A program made the translations under genes and the position numbers. The notes beneath the pieces were generated by a model that was given only the letters and a program-made list of their open reading frames with translations, had not been told where the DNA came from and searched no databases. A stretch of 58,986 nt of DNA, the filler included, from Sluysia triapertura (lineage: Eukaryota): NCBI GenBank assembly GCA_046118255.1. It is 4 parts of 4 records of this genome, joined end to end, with 100 filler letters (N's around TTAATTAATTAA, not from the genome) between each part and the next. Parts side by side here need not be neighbours in the genome. Positions count along the whole stretch, not along the records: positions 13,681 to 28,115 come from JBJNIA010259402.1; 3 more parts are not named here. The stretch is one strand, 5' to 3'. Positions 18,654 through 56,331 of this stretch are shown here, piece by piece (within the stretch, counting starts at the first letter, position 1; every line of letters begins with the position of its first letter).

Positions 18654-20257
18654 GCTATATGTATAGTGAAAACATGTTATGATATTCATTGAATAGTGGA
18701 GATGTTAAAAAGACTTCAGTTTTTTTTTGAAATTTTAAAGAAATGTTTAAATGACTCTGTTTATTTTTTTTTGATTCAAAAATTATTTAAAAATTTTATT
18801 TTAAAATTATGCCAATAAGATCGAATGATATTTTTATTGTGCATTAAAATATTTTTAAATGTTTTAAGTTACATTATTACTCGGTTTTAGTTAAGTTTCT
18901 AATAAATTTGTTTCAAATTATTTAATTTTCTTTAATTATTTAGTTAAACGAACTTAATGAATAATTGATAATTTTATATATTTATATATTAATATGTATG
19001 CTGTGGTTTTTATTAAAATTTACGTCGAAACCTACGGCAAAATAGAAAATCGAGCAGGATTCGGTTTCAGTAAGCGTCTTACGTCATGAAGTAGGCACCA
19101 ATGCAGCAAAGTAAGTTAAACGAAGCAAAATAAATCGAACCTTTAATTTTATAGTAAGAGGGTCAACTAATTCTAAATGAATTGTAAAAAAATTTACAAT
19201 TTGGATGGATAAGTTATATAATAAGAATAGAATTTAAAGAAAGACATTGTATGATTGTAATATTAAAACTTCTAAAAGCATTTAATATCTTTAATTAATA
19301 ATTTACGTGTATTTTGCCCCTCAATATATCGGGGAACCTTAAGAATAAAGTTATTCGAAATTGATTTTAAGATATTATTTTCCTTAAATGAAAAAAAAAC
19401 AAATTACTTGAATCATGGAAGAAATTTGTGGAAATCTAATGATAATGTTGCCGCGAATTAAATATCTAACAAAATTAGCTAAACTGATGGCTTAACCGAT
19501 TTGAAAATGATTGATTTGAAATTAGCGAATTTACAAATGGCTGTACTGAAAATGGCGATTTTCATTGTATTGATGCTAGTGTATATACTAGTCACTAAAC
19601 AATTAAAACCGATGGAATGTTCTAGAAGCTTCTATGCTATTGTAATGACTAATCTAATCTATTTTGTGTGTAGTGGTTCATTTATTACTTATTTTTATTT
19701 GTGCTAATCATTTATGTGCTCTATTTATAATATTGATCTTTATGCTAAATTGTGGAATTTTGTAAAAAATTTTTAAAAAAAAAATAAGTATGTTTTTAAT
19801 TTTTATTGAAATTATTAAATTAAATTATTTTAAATTAAATTTTTAATAAAATTATTTTTGAATTAAATTATTAAGCTAATGAGATTAAGTTATTTAATTA
19901 AAAAATTTTATTTTATTAAATTTTTGTTTATCGAAATATACCTTTTGTTTTAATCTGACTTCAAGGTCAGATTAAACTACTATATATACATTTACAAAAT
20001 CACATCAAAAAATTTTGATTATAAATCCTCACAACAAATCTTTACTTAAAAGTCTAATTATTAACAGTTAAAGAAGAAAGTTTCTATTTCGGCGCTGACA
20101 TTTGAATAATTTTATTTGGATCACGTTAGCTTGATTTTTATTAAGATCAGATATTCGTAGAATATCAATAGTAAAATTTACTTAAATTTTTGAATTTTTA
20201 TTTGGATCGTAAATGATCTCAGACAAAATATCATTTTAAAAAATTTCTTTTTATATT

Positions 20258-20324
20258 TAATAATAATAATATATTAATTTATATTGCGCTTATATCTACC
20301 GCGAAAGTACTCAAAAGCGCTTAA
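20258..20324 (-). mobile_element. L2-LINE/SINE-type 3' tail fragment
   Basis: Minus strand AAGCGCTTTTGAG...AAGCGCAATATAAAT...(ATT)n resembles L2-clade 3' tails; near-identical copy at 39710-39779. Confidence 0.55.
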
Positions 20325-20649
20325 GGTAAACTAAGCGCTTATTGTAACTTTATTATTTTTATTATTAATTTCTTATCTATAATCATTGTTATAATAAAAC
20401 TTAAACTTGTGGTTTGAATTTTCCTTGCTATAGCTTTAAAATCATAAAATCAGTTTATTCCAAAGATTTCACATACTAGAAGTTAAGTCTAGTAAGTAAA
20501 CTATATTTTATTCGATTCCATATAACGGAATCTACGCAATATTCTCATTTAAACTTACTACAATTGATATTTAATTTACTTAAATTATCATTTACTTAAG
20601 TGTTAAGAAGAACTTTTGTAATCCAAGTTAAGCATCTTTTCTTACGATT

Positions 20650-20706
20650 AAAATCCAACGGCTGGCCTTCGCTGGTAAGCCCAGTACGTTGGTGAACTCA
20701 CGCTAA
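20650..20706 (+). ncRNA. Conserved 57-nt structured motif, copy A (candidate cis-acting RNA element)
   Basis: 51/57 identical to the reverse complement of 22377-22433; stems CCAACG/CGTTGG, CTGG/CCAG, GTG/CAC. The repeat is directly seen; RNA function is inferred. Confidence 0.55.
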
Positions 20707-22376
20707 GTTTTATTAAATTTATTCTACACTTTTCTTACATTATTAAAGCTGTATTACTGAATAAAGATGATGATGATGATGTTAGCATAAGCGAATGTGA
20801 CATTGTAGATGAAGAACATTACATCTTGTTATAATTGATTTAATTAAATATATTACATTATATATATTACATTGCTTATAAGTAATTATATATTATATTT
20901 TGATTTAATTTAATATATTATGGTGCGCCTTATTTATAAAAATATTTTAAACAAAGTTCATTTTTTAACTTTTATTGACGATAGAACGTTTATATTAATT
21001 GATAACTGTTTGCATATTTAAATAAATTTTATATAAATAAAGTTTCTTCATTGGATGAGAACATAAAATTGTATTTAGATAAGTTTAGTAGAAAGTTTCG
21101 ATGAAGCTATTAACTGAAATTCATTTAATGGTTCTAATTATGTTTGCTTGTAATTTATATCTTAAATTATTCATTTTTAGAAATGTTACATTTACTCAAA
21201 TAAATCATGAATTGTCAATTAACAAAAAAATATTTCACACATTTTAATAATTTTATTAAAGCACTTTCTATTGTTTTATTAAAAAGATCAATATGCGTTA
21301 TTTTGTTAGTTATCAGCTAAAAAAATGCTTACATTTATAAATAAATGTATACTTCGTTTATGTATCATTTCAAATAAAGTATTAATTTAAATAATTATAA
21401 GTCAGATTTTTAATTAAAAAAATTCATTCATTTCGTCTCATTAGCAATAATTTTAGATAAATTATTTTAAAATATAGAAATTATAAACGAATGTTTTGTG
21501 ATTAATTGAATAAAAAGTAATTTGAAATTTTGTTTTTTTAATGAAAATTATTACATACTTGGTAAAATATTTCGTTAATTCATCCATTTTTTGCAAAATT
21601 GTCGACTTTCTGAATAATTTTCAATTGTTGAAATATATAAATATTACACTAGATGAATTATAAGTCGATTCTTAATTTTAATCTATTAAAATATTTTTAT
21701 TTTAATTAAAGATTAATTAAAATGTATTTGTTTTAATATTTTAAATTTTGTTTTTATGTTTTACAAAAATGTTATTTTATAAGACATTTGTAGTAGTTTT
21801 ACTTTTAATATCATAAAACTTAAATACAATAAATAACAAGATAAATATTTAATAATTTTAAAAGACAAGTAGTGAAACTAAAATGAGGAAAGCTGTGTTA
21901 CAACAATTGAATTTTCATTTTAAATAATTCCTAAACATTTGTTTTCTTTAGGCAGTTTTGCAATAATCAATGAAGTGTATTTACTACTAAATTATTTAAT
22001 AGTTTGTTCTCCATATATGATCGTTAGATTAATTTATTTATCATTTATTTAGGCCTTAGTGGTTTTATTTAATACACTGATTATTATATATCTAAATTAA
22101 ATTAAATCAAAACTTATCATAATTCCTATTGCAATATTTAATTGTGAACGGTTATTTTTATTTTATTATATAGCTGTAATCAAACGCTGTACATAAAACT
22201 TAGTGAGTTTTAAGTAAATACATTGAAACTTTGAATAATCTTGGAGTGTAAATAGTGTTTCGTAGCAATTAATTTATTATTTTATAACCCATTATCCAAA
22301 TATTTTGGACTAATTTTTAAACAATGAAAATTATGGATATTGTGAGAAAAGTAATATAATAGAATATGGTTAAAGT

Positions 22377-22433
22377 TTAGCGTGAGTTCACCAACGTACT
22401 GGGCTTACTGGTTAGGGCCAGCCGCTGGATTTT
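22377..22433 (-). ncRNA. Conserved 57-nt structured motif, copy B
   Basis: Inverted copy of 20650-20706; an A>G change turns an A-U pair into G-U on the gag-sense strand. Confidence 0.55.
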
Positions 22434-24240
22434 GTAAATAAAAAAACCTTAAGTGATGCTTAAAAAGAAATGCTCCAGAACCTCAATACTTAATTATATT
22501 TTTAATTGTCTTGAGTTAAGTCAAATAATTTTAGTTAATTTATCAAAAATAATAACAATGTTAATAAGATGATTTTTCGTTTATTCCCTTAAATACATTT
22601 TACGTCGTTAGATTTAAATTCTAACTTTGGAAAGCTTTTCTAATAATCAATTTTATAGTTAAAGCTATATAAATTAAATTATAAGCAAAAATTGATTATC
22701 AATAATTTATTTTTAAAACTTTTAATCAAAGAATGTACAAAATGGTAAATGAAAAATAATAATTTGCACTAATTAACTCCTTGAGTTAATGGATAATATA
22801 AATGATTTTATTAAAGAATTTTACGTTGGATCTATTATAAGATCCTAAAATTATTATTATAATATTTTAAGTAGAAATTTACGTTGGATACACGAAGGTA
22901 TCAGGCCTTAAAATAATTAAACTAGCGTGATACAATAAAATTTGAAAAGAATTGATTGTCTCTGGAACCGTAATGGAGAAAAAACTTGCAATTAAAATTG
23001 TAAAGTTGAAAAACAAGACTTTTGAAAATAAAATTGTGTTTTGTTTCTAAAATTTGAACATATTTATATCTGTTCTTAATCCGACTTTCATCAGATTAAA
23101 ACAAATATTGAAAACAAATTTATTTCAAGTTAATTTAATTTTTTAAAATCATAATAAATTACTAAAATAAATATAATTAATAATAATGCATCAAAAATAA
23201 CTAAAATTACTTACATTTAATAATATAAAAATATACTATCCAAAAACGACAAATAATCAAATAATTCAAATAATTACAATATGAAATAATATAATAAATA
23301 AATGTATTAATAAGTATGTTAAAATAATCAATAAATGTATGATGTATCAACGAGTGTACTATTATCAGTGAGTGTGTTATATGTTACCAATGAGTGTGTT
23401 ACAATACTAACAACGAAAAATATCTATAAAACGGTTTAAATGTTAATATGATATAAAGAATCAAGAGACAACTTAGAAATTATTTTACCAGTGTTAATAG
23501 ATTGATTCTTGTTCCACCGATAAATTCATCGATAAATACATAAATCCGAATTCGCGAGGAGAAAAATATTTCCGACGCCAATCCAACTATTTCTATTGCC
23601 TATTTCCACAAGTTTTTTATCCTTTTTTAAAATATACGTATATTCACTAATAATTTTTGAACTAGTTCAATTTTTATTAGGTAATAAAGCCAACTATATT
23701 AGCTTTTATAAATTTTTCGTTGTTATAGTATACCTTATTCTTAAAATTCTTTCGATTAATTTATTCTTGCATTTTGATATTCTTATTCCTAAAATCAAGC
23801 TGTATTTAATAACTAAGATAATCTTAGCTTCAAAATATTTATTATTCTCATGTTGTAAGGGCGTAAAGTTTTATTTTTGTCTTATTTTTATGTTTTATAT
23901 TTTTTATTATTTATATTTAAAAATTTTCAAAATTGTAAATTATTATAAAAATTATTAAAAAATTATTATTATTTAAAAAATTATAAATAAAATTTAATTA
24001 TAAAAAATTTAAATTTAAAAGAATGTTCTGAATTAAAGAATTGTTTTTTATACTCACAAAAACTATAAAAACAAATAGCAGTAGAACCATCATTTTGACA
24101 ATTTCAGTTTACTGATATAGTCGCCATTTTAAATTTATCAGTCATATTAGTTTCAACAATCCATTCATTATTTCGATTCTCTTTGGCATTCGAACTGTAA
24201 AAACTTGATTGTTTTGATTGTTACACTTGACTTATTGTGT

Positions 24241-25402
24241 TCACTGTACATTGTTATTATTATTATTATAATTATCATTAAACCTTACTTTCCTATTTGG
24301 GCTTTGGTATTGACCCCTTACCTTATTAAAATCCTGAGTGAATACATTTTGTCTTAATTTCCTACAATCTCTTGCATAATGTCCTTTCTTATTACAGTTA
24401 TCACAGATTAATTCTCCATCTATATTAGTTTGAGTCTTATTATTATTTTTATCATATCTTATTGGACTTTTGCTCCTATTCCTATTAAAACTAGAACTTG
24501 GTGGCCATCTTGGTGCTTGTCTCTGTTCATAATTAGAAGCACCATAATTACTTGCTCTATTTTGGAATCCTCTATTATTATTATTATTTCCTCTATAATT
24601 ATTTGAGTTATCCATGTTATTGTTTGAACTGTTTCTTCTATAATTACTTGAATTTCGTCTAAGATTATTTCTATCATTACCTCTATAATTATTTGAATTG
24701 TTATTACTTCTGTAATTATTTGAATTATTATTGCCTCTGTGTGGGCTATTACGTCGTTCCTGGCTATAATTATAATCATTCTATTCTTCATAATTAGATC
24801 TATTATCATTATAATTATTTCTTGTCATTTTAGGGCTCTTATCCCCTTTTTCTTCGTTGTCACTTACATAATCAATATTATTCTTATTTTTCTTTTGCAT
24901 AATTGAGCGGTCAATGCTCCTTAATATTTTAATTACTTCCGTAAAAGGTTTTCCATCTATTAAATTGATATAAGTTATTAATTCAGGTCGCAATCCAGTT
25001 TTTAATTTATCTTTTAATGTTAATTTTCTATTAGCTTCTGGAATTTTGGCTCTAGCAACAAGGCTTTTAATAGCGCGAACATATTCATATACAGATTCGT
25101 TAGGTTTTTGTATTCTAGTATTAAGCTTTTTTGCATTAACAAATTCATTCCAGGTTTGCTTATTATTATCACTTATTTCCTTATATGTCTGGATAGCAAC
25201 TCCAGTTAGGTAATTTTGGATCCGTTTTATTTTCTCGGCTTCATTCCAGCCGTTAGCTTCTGCTATACTTTCGCATTCAAATAAGAAATCGCAGAGATCT
25301 TCCTCTGCACAGTTAAACTTTTCATTTCGGGTAAAGCATTATTGGACGCATTTCTCTGGCTAATTGTGCCATATAATCTTTAAATTCATTTGGTAAAGCC
25401 AT
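24241..25402 (-). pseudogene. gag: Ty3/gypsy Gag (capsid, Asn-rich spacer, CCHC knuckle), one frameshift and one internal stop
   Basis: FLFECESIAEANGWNEAEKIKRIQNYLTGVA, MHR-like RIQKPNESVYEYV, KTGLRPEL, zinc knuckle CDNCNKKGHYARDC; frameshift near 25325, TAG at 24783-24781 links two track ORFs in the same frame. Confidence 0.9.
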
Positions 25403-28115
25403 GTAGTTCCTTAACTTTGATATGTAATCTTCTGAAAGTACTAATTGCTTATCTATTTTTCTTAAAGTTTACTAAATTTTCACGTTCCTTTTTTCAAAAT
25501 TTTCAAATAAAGAGTTCTCGAGCAAAATGTGTAGAATCCGTTGTAAAACGCGTAACCACACGTGCAACAATAAGAACACCGTGTAATATTAAATTAATTA
25601 ATCATAATGAGATTCCTATGTCGATAGCAGTACTGTCTTTAAAATATGAATATCAAAGACTAGTTAAAATTTTAAATTTGAATTCACGTGAATTAAAGAC
25701 TAAACGAGTATATTCTTGTGATGTTTTGCAAGAAAAGACTAATATTTTAATGAAACAAGCCTTTGGATGGTTCATGTGTCAGTTAGAAGACACGATACGA
25801 TTATATTTTATTTAGAGTCGTTTAAATTATTGATATTTAGTATAGATGCGTTTGATAACATCGAAGAATTGGTAACTTTGTTGTTCATGAGGCAAGAAAA
25901 TCGGTCAGAAAATATTTCAAAACCTATATTACAAACATACTTCATCACATACGAACATTTTGTACATTAACAAAACACTAAATAAACTACTTGACTCATT
26001 CAAAAGCAAACATAATTATCATGAGTTATGGTTATTGTTATCATGAACTCCATTGTAATAATAATTATAATAATTTCATATAATAATTCTTACAATAATA
26101 TCATAATACCATCAACACCATCATATTAAAATGTATAATAATTCCATTATAAATTTATTCCTATCATTGTTATCATTATGATTTCTGTTATTTTCACAAT
26201 TAATATTCTTTTTATTCTTTTTGTTTGTATGAATTTTTATATATTTATGTTTGTGTTGTTATTATTCACATTTTATTGCTTATAACTTTCTTTCTAACCC
26301 TCTTTCCTCAACTTTCTGGTGTTGAAATTATTGAATATATTATTCGCTTAGAACGATAACACAATTTGCTACTATTACAATTACTATAATCATTATTACT
26401 GTTACTATATTATTATTACTTCTACATTATTTTAAGATGTTGGAAAATAACTATATTTTCATAAATTCTGGTGACAGTAAAATAATAGATTAGAATACTG
26501 AAGTTAAAAAGTATCTTATTCATGTTGAATGATAACAAATTATATACTATTATTAAAATTATTATTATTATCATGTTTATTTTACTTTTAATTTTTAATT
26601 AAATTTTAACTGCTTAAAATAATCAGTTGCTAAAATTTAATTAAAATTATGTCTATTATTATTGTAATCACTGTTACTATTATTATTACTACAATTATTA
26701 TTAGTGTAAATACTACTACCATTACTACTATTACTACCAGTACTACTACTAAAGTAATACGATTACCACGACCGCTATTGCCACGACATATAAAATTATA
26801 AATAAAAATTATAATTTCAAGTCTATGATGAAATCTAACCAAGCAAGTACACAAAAATTTGAAACAAGTAAACTCCAAGCTGATTCACCAGATAATACTA
26901 TATTTATCAAGTATCCAAGATTAATCGTCGCGCTCTTTCAAATCCAGTTTTGATGTATAATCGAGATTTAGATGAATATAAAAATTCTCTTCATCGAAAT
27001 GATAGAAGTGAATTAAATGGTAATTATAAAGATTCTGCAAGAAAGTTAATAAATATGAATCTGAATGACTACATCTAATCACGAGTAATATCTGAAAATA
27101 CTGAAATATCTGAATGATTCATGGAAAAAATTCACGAATTTGAAACATCACTTGAAACTCAAAGTCTCGAATCTAAGGGAACAGAACCAATTATTCAATT
27201 AGCTATCGATGCTACAAAAAAGCAACAACAACATATCTTGGTATCATATTCTTGGCGACATTATTGAAGACATTGCAGCTAATATGAGTATAAATGAACT
27301 AAAAAACAAATTCAAGTATCTGAAAGATCTAATCCGTCAATGATATTATTGCTAAAATTTTTGGAATATTAAGGGTCGCGATATTATTAATTTTTACTTT
27401 TTATTTATTGTTGAATAATAAAAGTTTATGAAATTTTGTTGATTTGATGTTTGTAAAATTTAGTTTTGTTTTTATATGCCTTAAGCCTATGTTGTTTAAT
27501 AATTTATTAATAGTTAAAAATTTAATGTTTTAAATTGTTTGTTTAGTATATTAGCCAAAATCTCAATTACGAATAAATTTATAAAGTTATATAGTTTCAA
27601 ATGGTAATAAAGCTGTGTTGCCGGAAACGTCGCTGATTGCCGAAGTTTGATTTTCTATGTTGGAATGGGTCTCTTACCTAATGTAGTGTTTATTATTTAT
27701 CTGCTTATGGTATTATCATTTTTATTTCGCCAATTCGTGCAATATATAAGGACTTTTTGTGATTATATGATTAAGGATTTGAAGTCAACTTTTAGAAAGA
27801 TAAATGTTTTAATAGTTTCTAAATTTAATAATTCTTAATCAAATTAATAAAGTTCTAAATATAAAAACATTAAATAAGAATTATAATAAAAATAATATTT
27901 TAATAAACTTATTTTAATAAATAATATTTTAAGAAACTTATTTTCTTGGTTTTAGTAAATAAGTTAAGCTAGTGGTTAAGACCTAGCGTAAAATTCTGAA
28001 ATTTTAAGTTTTTTAATTAAAATAAGAACGTTTAGAAAACTTAAATAAACAAATTTACTTTTGCATGGATTTTCTAAAATGTTCGAATAAATTTTCATTG
28101 ATTAATAAATTTTGC

Positions 28116-30318: not shown

Positions 30319-30749
30319 TATCTTCGTTATTAAAAATTACTATGCAATGATTAACTACAAGCATGTTGAAGTTTAACATAACTTCTGAGTGTAGTGATTA
30401 TTTATGGAATTTATATATTATCATCAATCATATAATTGTAACACAAATATCAAATTAATCTATTTGAATTATTTGTAGAACAATAATTTACTTTTTTAAA
30501 GATTCAATTGGAGAAAGAATTGATCAAATTTTGTTCATTAATCGATTTTATGAGATGTAAACGAAAGTGAATTCTAAGAAAGAAAATCAATAATTGTATT
30601 GACGAGGGAGAGAGATAGATGAGAAGAGAATATCGTGTTGTGATAGGACGTAAATTGAGATGAGAATTTCTGTCACAATTTTCTCACAATTTGATTGGTT
30701 CTCTTTCTACTCACAACACATCAACACATACAATTGTAATGATGCTAAA

Positions 30750-30873
30750 ATGCTTGGTTATTTGAAACGTCGTTTTTCATCTGGAGATTTGCAAGGTGAG
30801 GCGGCTGATAATCGACAACAAGACGGTATAACGTCATTTTTAAATCCATTCAATACCGCTACTAGTTCATCTA

Positions 30874-30904
<31 letters not shown>

Positions 30905-33075
30905 ATCTACTGTTACTAGTGCCACTGGCTCGTCTACTGCAGGGGCGCTTAATAGACCAACTAACACTTCTATCCCAAACAGGACTAACACTATATCGAC
31001 TACATCGACTTCATATTCGACTGTGCCTACTCGGACTTCGCAAAATCAAGTTTGTTGTTACATTTCGATGAATTTACAAATTATGTATTTACAAATTTAT
31101 TATTTAAATGTTTATTGGATTTCAACTGTACTTTTCTAATCACGAGAAACATTTCAATCTATTATATTTGTGTGAGTCGATATTTCTTATTTCTGTCGTA
31201 TTGTCTCTTTTTTTCAGACTTCATTTCCGACACCTCGAGCAGCTTATCCAAGTGCGCCAACTTCCCCTACACGTTCTGCGAGTTCATCTTTTGCAGCTCC
31301 AGTCGTGGAGAGTATAACTGGTCAAATATCGAGTACCTTGTCCAGAGGTATATTCGGTGGAGGATCTAATTCTAGTTACAAATCTGGACAGGGTAAATCA
31401 AAATGTAAAATTATACTTATAATCGATGAACCTCACATTGATTGGTTAGATCCTTTTATAGCTTTATGTATTTTAAAAAAGTTCAAGTAAATGTTAATAT
31501 ATACCTCATTAATTAAATTTAATTACGGTTACCATGGAATAAATTTGTAAACAATATAATTCGAAATTTCTCATACTTCTTTTGTAAATCATCGCTATAG
31601 AAAATAATGAGTCACAGAAGCGAATTTCAATTAGGAGTTATTTTTTGTGATGCGATTCTGATTCTGCAGATGCCCTTGCACTGGAAATTTCCATTTCGAT
31701 AGCACAGCATTCGTATACGTCGCGATACTCAGTGTTTATAACTGAATATTTATGAGTTTTGAATAAATCGAATTTGTCTGGAAAAAGAAAATTTGGTAAA
31801 TATTCATTTTCTATTTCAATAAAACCCAAATAATAATGCTTTAAAAGGTCTAGGATACACATGCAATTCAGAATTTTCCATTGTGAGAAAAACTTCAAGA
31901 TGGATCATGCTATTTTCTAAGATGCGATTGGAAAACGCCCAAGATTGTCAAGGTCTACAAGAAATGCTGCAATCGTGGTACAGATGGTGATCTTACAGAT
32001 TCATCTAGTCGCTATGTTACTTGATTCACAGTTTGAGGATCACAGTGCTAAGAGATATTGTATGACTGTGTTTAGAATAAATTGTTTTATTTTTAATGCT
32101 GCATCACGTATTACGAATTCAGTGCAAAATCGATCAGAAGAAAATAAGATTCTGAATTAAGCAGAACTTTCAATGAGTATTTTTCAATGAGAACTTTCAA
32201 TGTCTTTATTTTTTAATGTTCGTATTGTGGATAAAATCGTAAATATATTGAATTGGTGCATAAGTTCAATAATAGGGTTTTTACAATTACGAAAAATGCA
32301 TACTGATCAAGAATAAAAAACATGCTAAAAAATTCCAGATAACAAAATGAATTTATTAAATCATTAGAAAAACAAATATTTGAGTTACAATGGTGAGATA
32401 CTCTCCGCCACAATCGATCACTTCATTCCACCGTTCTGACAGTGTCAGTCCCACATTTGAAGAAGCGTGGTGATTTTTGTGTTGTTCGTTCACTGACTGC
32501 CTTTTCTCCATAAACGCAACAAATCATTTTGGTGGCTTCTGCAGTGTTTAAATGTTGATTAAAATAGAAAAGGAGTAGATGCCTGAAATGTTCATTTTTA
32601 TCTCCCGGACACTCCATTTTAATGAGGGTAATGAAAGTGAAAGTTAGGCTAAAATGATTTAAATAGATAATTCAGCTGAATGAATATAACTCAAATCAGT
32701 TAAAGCAAGAAGTAGGTGTGTTTTCTTCGCAACAAATAAAACCGCACGAATTTATGCACCAACCCAATAATATTGATTTTCTCTCTAATTTCACAGGCCT
32801 CATTAAACTCCAATCGGAGGTTGATAACGTAGAAACACCAAATAAATAGATTGCTATGATTCTTAAGAGTTAGGATATGTACAAATATTTGGTTATAACA
32901 AATTCGGGTTATGCTTTGAATCAAAAGGACTTATAAGTGACATCATCTATCAGTCTCGATCTAAAATTAAATTAGTAACAAAAATTGTATTGGAAATATA
33001 AATTAAATTAATAATAAAAGTAATTATAGAAATTAATAATATAGAATTAATAAAATTTATAATATATTTATTGAA

Positions 33076-52710: not shown

Positions 52711-54282
52711 TTATTCGAATCTGCTATTGATATCTGAGTCCACTTTAACGTAAGAGTAGGAACCAAAATTGTTTCTATGTATCACTTGATTGTTGTTCAC
52801 AGAATATTCTGGAGAGCGTTTGCTGTCTACTTTGTCTTCTAATATTCCTTTAGGAGAAACACTGGGACTTTTGGAATTTTTTGCGGCCGGAGGAGTTGAA
52901 AAATCTTTATTACTACTGGAATTCTTAGCAGAATTTGGACTTTTGGTTAGGTCTCTGTTATTGCCTTCTAATTTATCAGCATATAATTCTAAATACTTAT
53001 TAAAATTATCTCGCCAGTTATTTCTGGGACACTCGGGGTTGTATAACTCTTCAAAATATTTAAAATTGGTCTCTACGGTATCAAAAGAATATATAATTTT
53101 CACTTTTGCCAAATCAACAGAAGTTGTTTTGATTTTATTAACCTTTTCACTCAAATTTGAAAAGAATTCACTAATTTTATTAGAGTCTTCTACTAGAAAT
53201 CTAACGAACCACTTGGTATCTATTAATACCAAGGCCAATAATTCTGATAACTTTTCTTTTGCTTGACTATGACCATTCATATCAACAATATCGCATAAGG
53301 CCAGCATCAGAGATATACAATTATCTTGATCTCGACACACTACCTTCTCAGGAGTGTCTCCTGCTACTTTTTCCAATTTACAGTCCCATCCGTAACGTCG
53401 AGGTCCGCAGAAATAAAAATGATACTGCATAATCTTGATTGCCAGAATAATCTGACTAAGCAACAATAGATTTTTATCGCAATAAATCAAATAACGCAAT
53501 AACCGTCGCGGAATTGATACCAGATCTACATCTTCTTTAGCTGAGTTTTTCATGGAAACTTTTTCAAACTTCATAATATCGAAATTCGGACTAATGGTAG
53601 CGATTAACTGTTCTATAAGCTTAAATAGTCGCAAGTTCGGTCGAAGTGTCATCTGAGCAATTGCATACTCAAATATGTCTTTGTAATGGAACACATAATT
53701 TTGACAAATGCGTCTGTATGGTAACTGTATGGGACTCTGCGGCATCCATCCGTAATTTAACAATGTTTCAATACATTCAAAACATTCTCTGCGAAACATA
53801 ATGCAATATGGATATATAACCATCAAATCGTTTCGATTTTCAAATCGTTCCAAATAATTAGTCACAAAACATGGCTGTAAAGATAAGTTTAAGGTTGGAT
53901 AAACTTCATTGGCATAAGATAATATATATCTGACAATTTTGGTTTTCTGAAGATAAATAGCCATTCCGATAGGTGTTAAATAAAGTACAGACTTTCTGTG
54001 GAACATTGGATTTCCATCTAGAGGAACGTCTGGAAATTGGCAATAGGTATTCAACAAATATTCGGGGTTCGTTAATATGACACGATAAATCCGATCCCAG
54101 TTGTCTGTCCGCAGCATGTTTAATAACCATTGAGTTTCTGAGTGTTGGAAGCCATAATAAGGAGGTACCGTATAAATCTGTCCCTGAGTTTTAAATATTG
54201 GTGGGTTTGGCAATCGTCCAACTTGTTTCAAACCACTGTAGCAAAATGACTGCATTTGGACAATTTGATCAATAGTTACCAT
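52711..54282 (-). CDS. Single-exon 523-aa protein with an N-terminal ankyrin-like repeat and Ser/Pro/Lys-rich tail
   Basis: 1572-nt ATG-TAA ORF; LYLTPIGMAIYLQKTKIVRYILSY fits the ankyrin TPLxxA...IVxxLL pattern; tail KSPNSAKNSSSNKDFSTPPAAKNSKSPSVSPK. No orthologue recognised. Confidence 0.8.
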   Translation of the reverse strand: MVTIDQIVQMQSFCYSGLKQVGRLPNPPIFKTQGQIYTVPPYYGFQHSETQWLLNMLRTDNWDRIYRVILTNPEYLLNTYCQFPDVPLDGNPMFHRKSVLYLTPIGMAIYLQKTKIVRYILSYANEVYPTLNLSLQPCFVTNYLERFENRNDLMVIYPYCIMFRRECFECIETLLNYGWMPQSPIQLPYRRICQNYVFHYKDIFEYAIAQMTLRPNLRLFKLIEQLIATISPNFDIMKFEKVSMKNSAKEDVDLVSIPRRLLRYLIYCDKNLLLLSQIILAIKIMQYHFYFCGPRRYGWDCKLEKVAGDTPEKVVCRDQDNCISLMLALCDIVDMNGHSQAKEKLSELLALVLIDTKWFVRFLVEDSNKISEFFSNLSEKVNKIKTTSVDLAKVKIIYSFDTVETNFKYFEELYNPECPRNNWRDNFNKYLELYADKLEGNNRDLTKSPNSAKNSSSNKDFSTPPAAKNSKSPSVSPKGILEDKVDSKRSPEYSVNNNQVIHRNNFGSYSYVKVDSDINSRFE

Positions 54283-56259: not shown

Positions 56260-56331
56260 GGGCTGATAGCTCAGTGGTAGAGCATTCGAACTGCGCAGCG
56301 AAAGTCCCGGGTTCGATCTCCGGTCAGTCCA
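56260..56331 (+). tRNA. tRNA-like gene (Ala/Cys-type body, abnormal anticodon arm); probably SINE-like rather than a decoder
   Basis: Acceptor GGGCTGA/TCAGTCC, D arm GCTC/GAGC, T arm CCGGG-TTCGATC-TCCGG, discriminator A, TTTT at 56332-56335; anticodon arm TTCG/CGAA around 10 nt. Confidence 0.55.

Follow-up and report, generated by a model that had tools for sequence, protein, structure and literature searches.

The window analysed here, meaning the whole stretch of 58,986 nucleotides (59 kb), consists of AT-rich animal DNA and contains on its minus strand a broken Ty3/gypsy-type gag gene (24241..25402) made up of a capsid part (24781-25338) and a zinc-knuckle part (24241-24780), with interruptions near its start and between the two parts. 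The Ty3/gypsy-type assignment reflects the combination of a gag capsid fold with a CCHC knuckle. Profile searching placed zf-CCHC above the cut-off and gave a weak Retrotrans_gag match below it (E 0.001), and the predicted capsid part (pLDDT 78) has the PNMA2 and dArc capsids as its closest folds (best E 9e-4). A protein search returned 25 distant relatives of this gag at 28-43% identity and two more searches added none from 460 and 61 candidates. No pol (protease, reverse transcriptase or integrase) was found among the 10 window ORFs scanned. Low-complexity Asn/Arg-Gly-rich reading pieces upstream of gag (26000-26900, minus strand) gave no profile match and resemble a second decayed gag tail. 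The protein collection contains no close relative of this AT-rich animal host: an exon of TM9SF1 (9899-10357, minus strand) shows, over most of its length, no more than 62% identity to any of 39 database matches, which come from many animal phyla. Exons on the plus strand at 30654-31490 (near 30.7-31.5 kb) presumably belong to synapsin.

The window contains two copies of a GC-rich motif, copy A at 20650-20706 (plus strand) and copy B at 22433-22377 (minus strand), in inverted orientation and 1.67 kb apart. Copy B shares the strand of the broken gag and lies 1.8 kb downstream of it. We number the motif from position 1 at 20650 in copy A and 22433 in copy B. As the initial annotation had reported, the copies agree at 51 of 57 positions and are identical over the last 32 nt (positions 26-57). 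The six differences are at positions 9, 19, 21, 22, 24 and 25, and the earlier reading of five of them as clustered in a hairpin loop and of the sixth, at position 9, as producing a G-U pair on the gag-sense strand holds, the five falling in what we call loop 4 below (a 7-nt insertion and the next two positions). A near-invariant 52-nt core covers positions 1-52 (20650..20701, plus strand, in copy A; 22382..22433, minus strand, in copy B). The motif has a G+C content of 54% against 23-24% for the units around it, and the longest exact run in the global alignment of A and B, of 30 columns, lies within it, with runs elsewhere of 15 columns or fewer. A 26-nt part of the motif matches at exactly two places in the window, copies A and B, when up to three mismatches are allowed (0 of 100 shuffled sequences gave such matches) and lenient patterns found no third copy in the 59 kb. 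An 8-mer complementary to positions 36-43 occurs twice on the minus strand (22887-22880 and 22829-22822), some 400-450 nt upstream of copy B, and is absent from copy A.

Around the motif the copies are far less alike, in keeping with the diverged flanks described earlier. The surrounding units, A at 19679-20743 and B at 23337-22337, align at ~60% identity over ~1.1 kb (E 1e-40). Within the ~1 kb upstream of the motif three sub-stretches were each better than 200 of 200 shuffles, while downstream only 33-36 nt are common to both (5 of 200 shuffles equally good). As drawn here, unit A spans 19679..20739 on the plus strand (~1.06 kb shown) and unit B 22341..23337 on the minus strand (~1.0 kb shown), both with an unfixed 5' end and both ending in ...ACA, at 20739 and 22341 respectively. 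This shared boundary is probably the 3' end of an LTR; it resembles the integrase signal of animal Metaviridae LTRs as described in PMC3601003. Unit A is a probable solo or 3' LTR and unit B a probable 3' LTR. The LTR label is one that we infer, since no 5' LTR was seen (no copy of unit B upstream of gag, searched to 28110), the unit 5' ends are unfixed and similarity between A and B upstream of ~19680/23340 was not significant when alignments were compared with shuffles. The gag-bearing element may be truncated, and no long ORF lies between gag and unit B. Further upstream of each unit, a 9-mer starting TG after a purine tract occurs exactly twice in the window, at 19427 (plus strand) and 23610 (minus strand), as does a CG-rich 8-mer at 19452 (plus strand) and 23556 (minus strand), one of each upstream of each unit and with the order kept. 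These sites are a possible LTR start, at which alignments were not significant.

Abundance and conservation of the motif

In order to describe the repeat, and for that alone, we used one sequencing run that contains the DNA of the window and is possibly its own sample (run X1). A 241-nt stretch around copy A was placed on by 2,535 of the 6,252,256 contig records of this run. Summed depth peaks at 636,333 inside the motif and drops to 8-24 in the unique flank beyond 20749; such depth is no copy number, short-contig overlap reaching up to 31-fold, and a rough reading is of a thousand to tens of thousands of motif copies. Three of the eight contig pieces listed stop at 20739, the ...ACA end of unit A. 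A purine run followed by TGTTAG, to which the initial annotation had drawn attention, does exist at 20780, but its reading as a polypurine tract of the element is disfavoured: it lies past the boundary common to the units, at a summed depth of 8-24 like that of unique DNA, and is therefore not a family feature.

The same annotation had allowed that only these two copies exist and owe their likeness to local gene conversion, a possibility that the contig records contradict as regards copy number. Conversion or a recent duplication between functionless copies fits their inverted arrangement 1.67 kb apart. It is contradicted, barring an artefact that dominates run X1, by the thousands of contig pieces in which unlike flanks surround the motif, and the six differences cluster in one loop; we consider this explanation hardly credible.

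Over 22200-25700, counted at 80% likeness, the motif bin reached a depth of 133,000 and most of gag, itself high-copy in run X1, one of 22,000-202,000, whereas the remainder of unit B had 240-2,900 and the stretch 23370-23720 had 13-47. At that likeness the motif is thus shared as widely as the gag coding sequence whereas its own flanks are not. The motif probably belongs to a gag-type retroelement. A single copy links motif and gag, and between the two lie ~350 nt at single-copy depth (23370-23720). No gag was found upstream of copy A, and copy A showed no significant homology with the region following gag (shuffles were equally good in 35 of 200 and 25 of 200 cases). These observations, together with the loss of significant likeness upstream of ~19680/23340, could also be accommodated by a twister-type ribozyme whose carrier, a 1-kb non-coding repeat or a short retroposon, has no relation to gag, the gene lying beside copy B by chance or nesting, and twister heads on non-LTR elements are known (PMC8501958). 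Such heads however start their element, while here ~1 kb is shared upstream of the motif and 33-36 nt downstream; the unit ends LTR-like in ...ACA on the gag strand; and motif and gag depths are of the same order, all of which makes an unrelated repeat improbable.

Inside the 52-nt core, variants listed with a share of at least 1% were at 22 (A, 33%), 31 (T, 68%) and 33 (T, 2%), an invariance that is somewhat overstated as variants near contig ends are unlisted. Positions 53-55 vary freely. Position 9 is A in 99.6% of depth, and the G9 (0.4%) and A25 (2%) of copy B are rare states among the variants listed. With T31 in 68% and A9 in 99.6% of depth, the compensated A-U state at 9-31 is probably the commonest in the family. 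The motif is a strongly selected, very abundant and real RNA element; no RNA dataset containing the DNA of the window was listed.

The initial annotation had also pointed to a 12-mer resembling a primer-binding site (PBS). Taking positions 41-52 as a 12-nt tRNA PBS, with the hairpin as a U5/PBS structure controlling the start of reverse transcription, would account for a segment that starts with TGG and for conservation that stops after 12 nt, and the 3' end of the one tRNA-like gene of the window (56260-56331, plus strand) would by a count made by hand pair with the segment at 10 of 12 positions, three of them the universal CCA. Its placement nevertheless makes priming very unlikely. The 12-mer lies 38-41 nt inside the CA-ending boundary and downstream of gag, with no gag-like sequence found downstream of copy A or B; no CA terminus directly precedes the TGG; neither a depth step nor a listed cluster of ends occurs at position 40; and pairing fails beyond position 52. 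The tRNA-like gene has an irregular anticodon loop and is repeated as pieces at 4560-4637 and 7443-7622.

Twister-like core and competing rod

The twister core (PMC5408937; PMC8501958, Table 1) begins with two adenines after the cut and a 4-bp P2, followed by a 2-nt T2 strand and a P4 that ends in a closing G-C pair. Its loop holds a 3-nt T1 strand, AA and the partner of T2, and after it come P2', GA and the strand that pairs in T1. Crystal structures show the 4-bp P2, the G-C closing loop 4, a 3-bp T1 beside A.A and a 2-bp T2 (PMC5408937). The initial annotation had judged by eye that the motif does not fit twister. Our analysis reverses this: the core topology fits and the pseudoknot pairs are compensated. 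Read as a twister, the motif has adenines A3-A4, P2 at 5-8/41-44, T2 at 9-10/30-31, P4 at 13-16/32-35, T1 at 25-27/47-49, A28-A29 and G45-A46. In copy A the nested helices P2 (with a U.U at its base) and P4 occupy 20654..20693, the loop-4 core of T1 strand (25-27), adenines (28-29) and T2 strand (30-31) occupies 20674..20680, the 7-nt loop-4 insertion 20666..20672 and the predicted general base G45 with A46 and the T1 partner strand 20694..20698, all on the plus strand. Twister geometry would put the cut between 20651 and 20652 in copy A and between 22432 and 22431 in copy B. Conservation begins at this predicted cut, with 117 and 65 loose ends before 20650 and 20651 respectively.

Each element of the core was compared with this scheme. 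A3 and A4, 3' of the cut and 5' of P2, are present in both copies without a listed variant. P2 has three Watson-Crick pairs and the U.U, and three further pairs are possible that would block T2. In T2, C10-G30 is available in both copies, while 9-31 is G-C in B and A.C in A. P4 has its three pairs and the invariant G-C, and its one listed variant (33 T, 2%) retains a G.U pair. T1 can pair in both copies beside A28 and A46, and G45 followed by A46 comes after P2 as expected of the general base. The 3' strand of L2 has 5 nt, as in Schistosoma twisters (PMC8501958, Table 1). What departs from the scheme is loop 4, which is not of a fixed short length with a conserved U.A pair (7-nt insertion; U24 in A, C in B), and P1, for which no pairing was found next to the cut, only weak displaced flank helices (-2.8 and +0.5 kcal/mol). 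The linker from T2 to P4 is only 2 nt. On account of the loop-4 insertion, the 2-nt linker, the lack of P1, a favoured alternative rod and the state of copy A, the motif is not a canonical twister.

A relaxed twister-topology descriptor run over both strands of the 59 kb gave two matches, copy A and gag-sense copy B, and 0 of 20,000 dinucleotide shuffles per copy. When the rod was kept and the letters of loop and tail were shuffled, 1 of 100,000 matched for copy A and 0 of 100,000 for copy B in each of three settings. The descriptor lengths were relaxed after the motif had been seen, and about eight families and two strands had been considered, so that the true odds are less extreme, though still small.

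The comparison with Rfam that the initial annotation had proposed gave no match at E<=10 for 106-nt pieces around either copy and two weak unrelated matches over 3 kb. Its view that hammerhead, HDV and pistol are absent agrees with our scan: in 4 strands of 177 nt we found no match to these or to the hairpin, HDV-like, hatchet and twister sister cores or to an HDV nested double-pseudoknot descriptor. The motif resembles twister sister in a short stem whose loop ends in AAGY and in a stretch of CUCA on the 3' side of P2. Twister sister lacks pseudoknots and is cut in the other strand (PMC5408937), and its cores are among those without a match in these strands. A 7-bp P2 with G12-C13 as T2 would fit the variation at position 31 and was rejected by geometric reasoning, there being no linker to P4. 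A type-P3 permutation leaves by eye no room for P1 and L1, and readings as a Helitron end, SECIS, 5S, vault/Y RNA, CTE or Pol III product had no Rfam support.

Mutants of the rice twister offer a measure of how far the letter changes might be tolerated, with values taken from columns of the PMC5113685 supplement counted by hand and pair swaps measured singly, not combined. Activity was 0.89 for the T2 A-U double mutant, 0.74 for a T1 G-C flip, 0.88 for T1 U-A, 0.61 for T1 G.U, 0.82 for the A-U found in copy B, 0.69 for U.U at the base of P2 and 0.53 for a loop U-to-C change. By this analogy each swapped pseudoknot or P2 pair of the motif would be one tolerated singly in rice (0.61-0.89). Against this, a 1-bp P2 extension cut the rice twister to 0.09, and the rice mutants equivalent to copy A, where A9 faces C31 and U40 is available, score 0.17 and 0.06; in run X1 about a third of depth has C31. 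According to PMC11662667, P1 is dispensable, flaws in P1 and P2 are tolerated and L2 strand length is immaterial, while T2 mismatches and loop-4 insertions lower cleavage. The same source places P5 on the 3' side of L2, so the 7-nt insertion of the motif is not P5. The motif may still work like a twister despite its non-canonical core.

The predicted fold of both copies on the gag-sense strand is however a rod, pairing 6-11 with 38-43 and 12-16 with 32-36, which results when the competing extension of P2 (9-12 with 36/38-40) forms. It is favoured by 9.4 kcal/mol over the nested helices of the twister fold, pseudoknots left out of the count, and a 3' hairpin (43-45/50-52) is within 0.7 kcal/mol of the predicted fold. 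The rod may itself be the working fold of a non-catalytic structured signal near the end of the element (dimerisation, packaging, strand transfer or export), its loop at 22-27 being self-complementary through tandem G.U and the twister signature a relic or accident. Positions 11 and 38-40, needed in the rod only, have no listed variant, a copy A dimer is predicted at -42.8 against 2 x -17.2 kcal/mol, and in the R regions of LTRs stem-loops are a known cause of conservation (PMC3601003). Yet the stability of the rod is ordinary (z -1.8 and -0.6 for the two copies), the dimer gain falls from 8.4 kcal/mol in A to 5.4 in B, whose loop is not self-complementary, and the rod leaves the fixed positions 3-4, 26-30 and 45-49 unexplained in an arrangement that is very unlikely given the rod. 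We regard a purely non-catalytic signal as a doubtful but serious contender.

We lean instead towards a conditionally folded twister variant that cuts the RNA of its element. Most likely the motif is a novel twister variant, placed close to the end of a terminal repeat in a gag-type retroelement. Of what the initial annotation inferred, we find support for a structured and strongly conserved element, here on the gag-sense strand of a retroelement-like repeat, with self-cleavage one of the functions that it had named, while priming from a PBS is disfavoured.

Proposed cleavage model and known systems

In the model that we propose the host element is a high-copy gag-encoding Ty3/gypsy-type family, and its RNA would be cut between motif positions 2 and 3, ~90 nt before the probable LTR 3' end. 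A3 would act as general acid and G45 as general base, with 25-27 pairing with 47-49 as T1 and 9-10 with 30-31 as T2. The off state would be the rod, extending P2 through 9-11/38-40, together with the 43-45/50-52 hairpin that hides G45, and refolding to the cutting form may follow co-transcriptional folding, chaperoning by the Gag nucleocapsid or RNA dimerisation. Bases 3-4, 25-30 and 45-49 would then matter just in the cutting fold and bases 11, 38-40 and perhaps 50-52 just in the rod and 3' hairpin; selection on two folds is our proposed reason for the near-total invariance of the bases, with the insertion as the sole free part. With each terminal repeat cleaved, the cut sites would set the ends of the packaged RNA, a role that hammerheads have in plant retrozymes. 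Should the unit be an LTR, cleavage of both repeats would leave a unit-length RNA without terminal repeat. In plant retrozymes such unit-length RNA has been proposed to be copied as a circle (PMC4918200). Extended fully, the model describes a twister-driven retrozyme in a Gag-encoding animal Ty3/gypsy-type element of thousands of copies, each LTR bearing a two-state twister, off as a hairpin and on by chaperoning or dimerisation (possibly with T1 formed between two RNAs), which cuts to unit length for a circular intermediate. This full version we consider unlikely.

Among known systems the motif resembles the rice Osa-1-4 twister (type P1, without P3/P5) in the order and spacing of N^AA (^ marking the cut), 4-bp P2, 2-bp T2, G-C-closed P4, 3-bp T1 beside AA, 5-nt L2 and GA before the T1 partner. 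It differs from Osa-1-4 and the Rfam twisters in swapped T1 and T2 letters, the 7-nt loop-4 insertion, the 2-nt linker, the want of a regular P1, a 3-bp competing P2 extension and the absence of an Rfam match. The T-variant twisters of Schistosoma mansoni Perere-3 share an A-rich cleavage loop, a poor P1, many genomic copies in a retroelement and conservation from the cut onward, but they head a non-LTR element with reverse transcriptase downstream and keep the canonical core letters (PMC8501958), whereas the motif sits towards the 3' end of its 1-kb unit and follows a Ty3/gypsy-type gag. With plant retrozymes (PMC4918200) it would share a self-cleaving motif in the terminal repeat of a Ty3/gypsy-dependent element; these however are non-coding, carry hammerheads and have ~330-bp LTRs, while here there is no hammerhead core, gag is adjacent, the unit is at least 1 kb and the host is an animal, and the unit is not a retrozyme as so defined.

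Pattern scans of viral, metagenome and prokaryote DNA gave no homologue of the motif outside its own genome. The loci returned (2, 11, 21, 0 and 1 in viral contigs, 0 and 15 in metagenomes and 12 in prokaryote genomes) are chance matches, and those checked for context lie in coding sequence. By eye, 10 of 11 and 20 of 21 viral loci look like the Walker A region of a phage helicase; one that was convincing at first (L009/L021) is antisense in a phage ORF, and another (L035) shares 25 nt but has no 5' half and is likewise antisense, within a long phage ORF. None of the 27 metagenome and prokaryote loci continues into the 3' core. No twister with a loop-4 insertion occurs in five passages of the PMC8501958 supplement. 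Retroelement ribozymes are on record from non-LTR and Penelope elements and from non-coding retrozymes (PMC6765202), and we found no twister in the LTR of a gag-encoding element in the literature searched, which excluded subscription journals.

Should the motif cleave, it would be a twister missed by the Rfam models, with both pseudoknots recoded and a built-in off state; twister searches would then under-count, and the relaxed descriptor used here offers a means of extending them. Such a large natural family, fixed in its core but diverged in its flanks, would make it testable what use a ribozyme has for an LTR element and how cleavage is restrained until it is needed. If it does not cleave, the motif remains an unusually conserved cis-signal of an abundant retroelement.

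Some further features of the window were noted. The 5' coding region of gag (25254-25246, minus strand) carries nine bases identical in this copy to motif positions 8-16; a long-range pairing of the motif with this twin was considered and dropped, one twin base differing in 89% of depth. An uninterrupted 523-aa ORF (52711-54282, minus strand) has no Pfam match and is absent from the protein collection. A remnant of a mariner transposase HTH (HTH_48, E 6e-13) lies at 32423-32671 on the minus strand, and a 209-bp inverted repeat of 91% identity (206-414 and 817-1025) is possibly a miniature inverted-repeat element.
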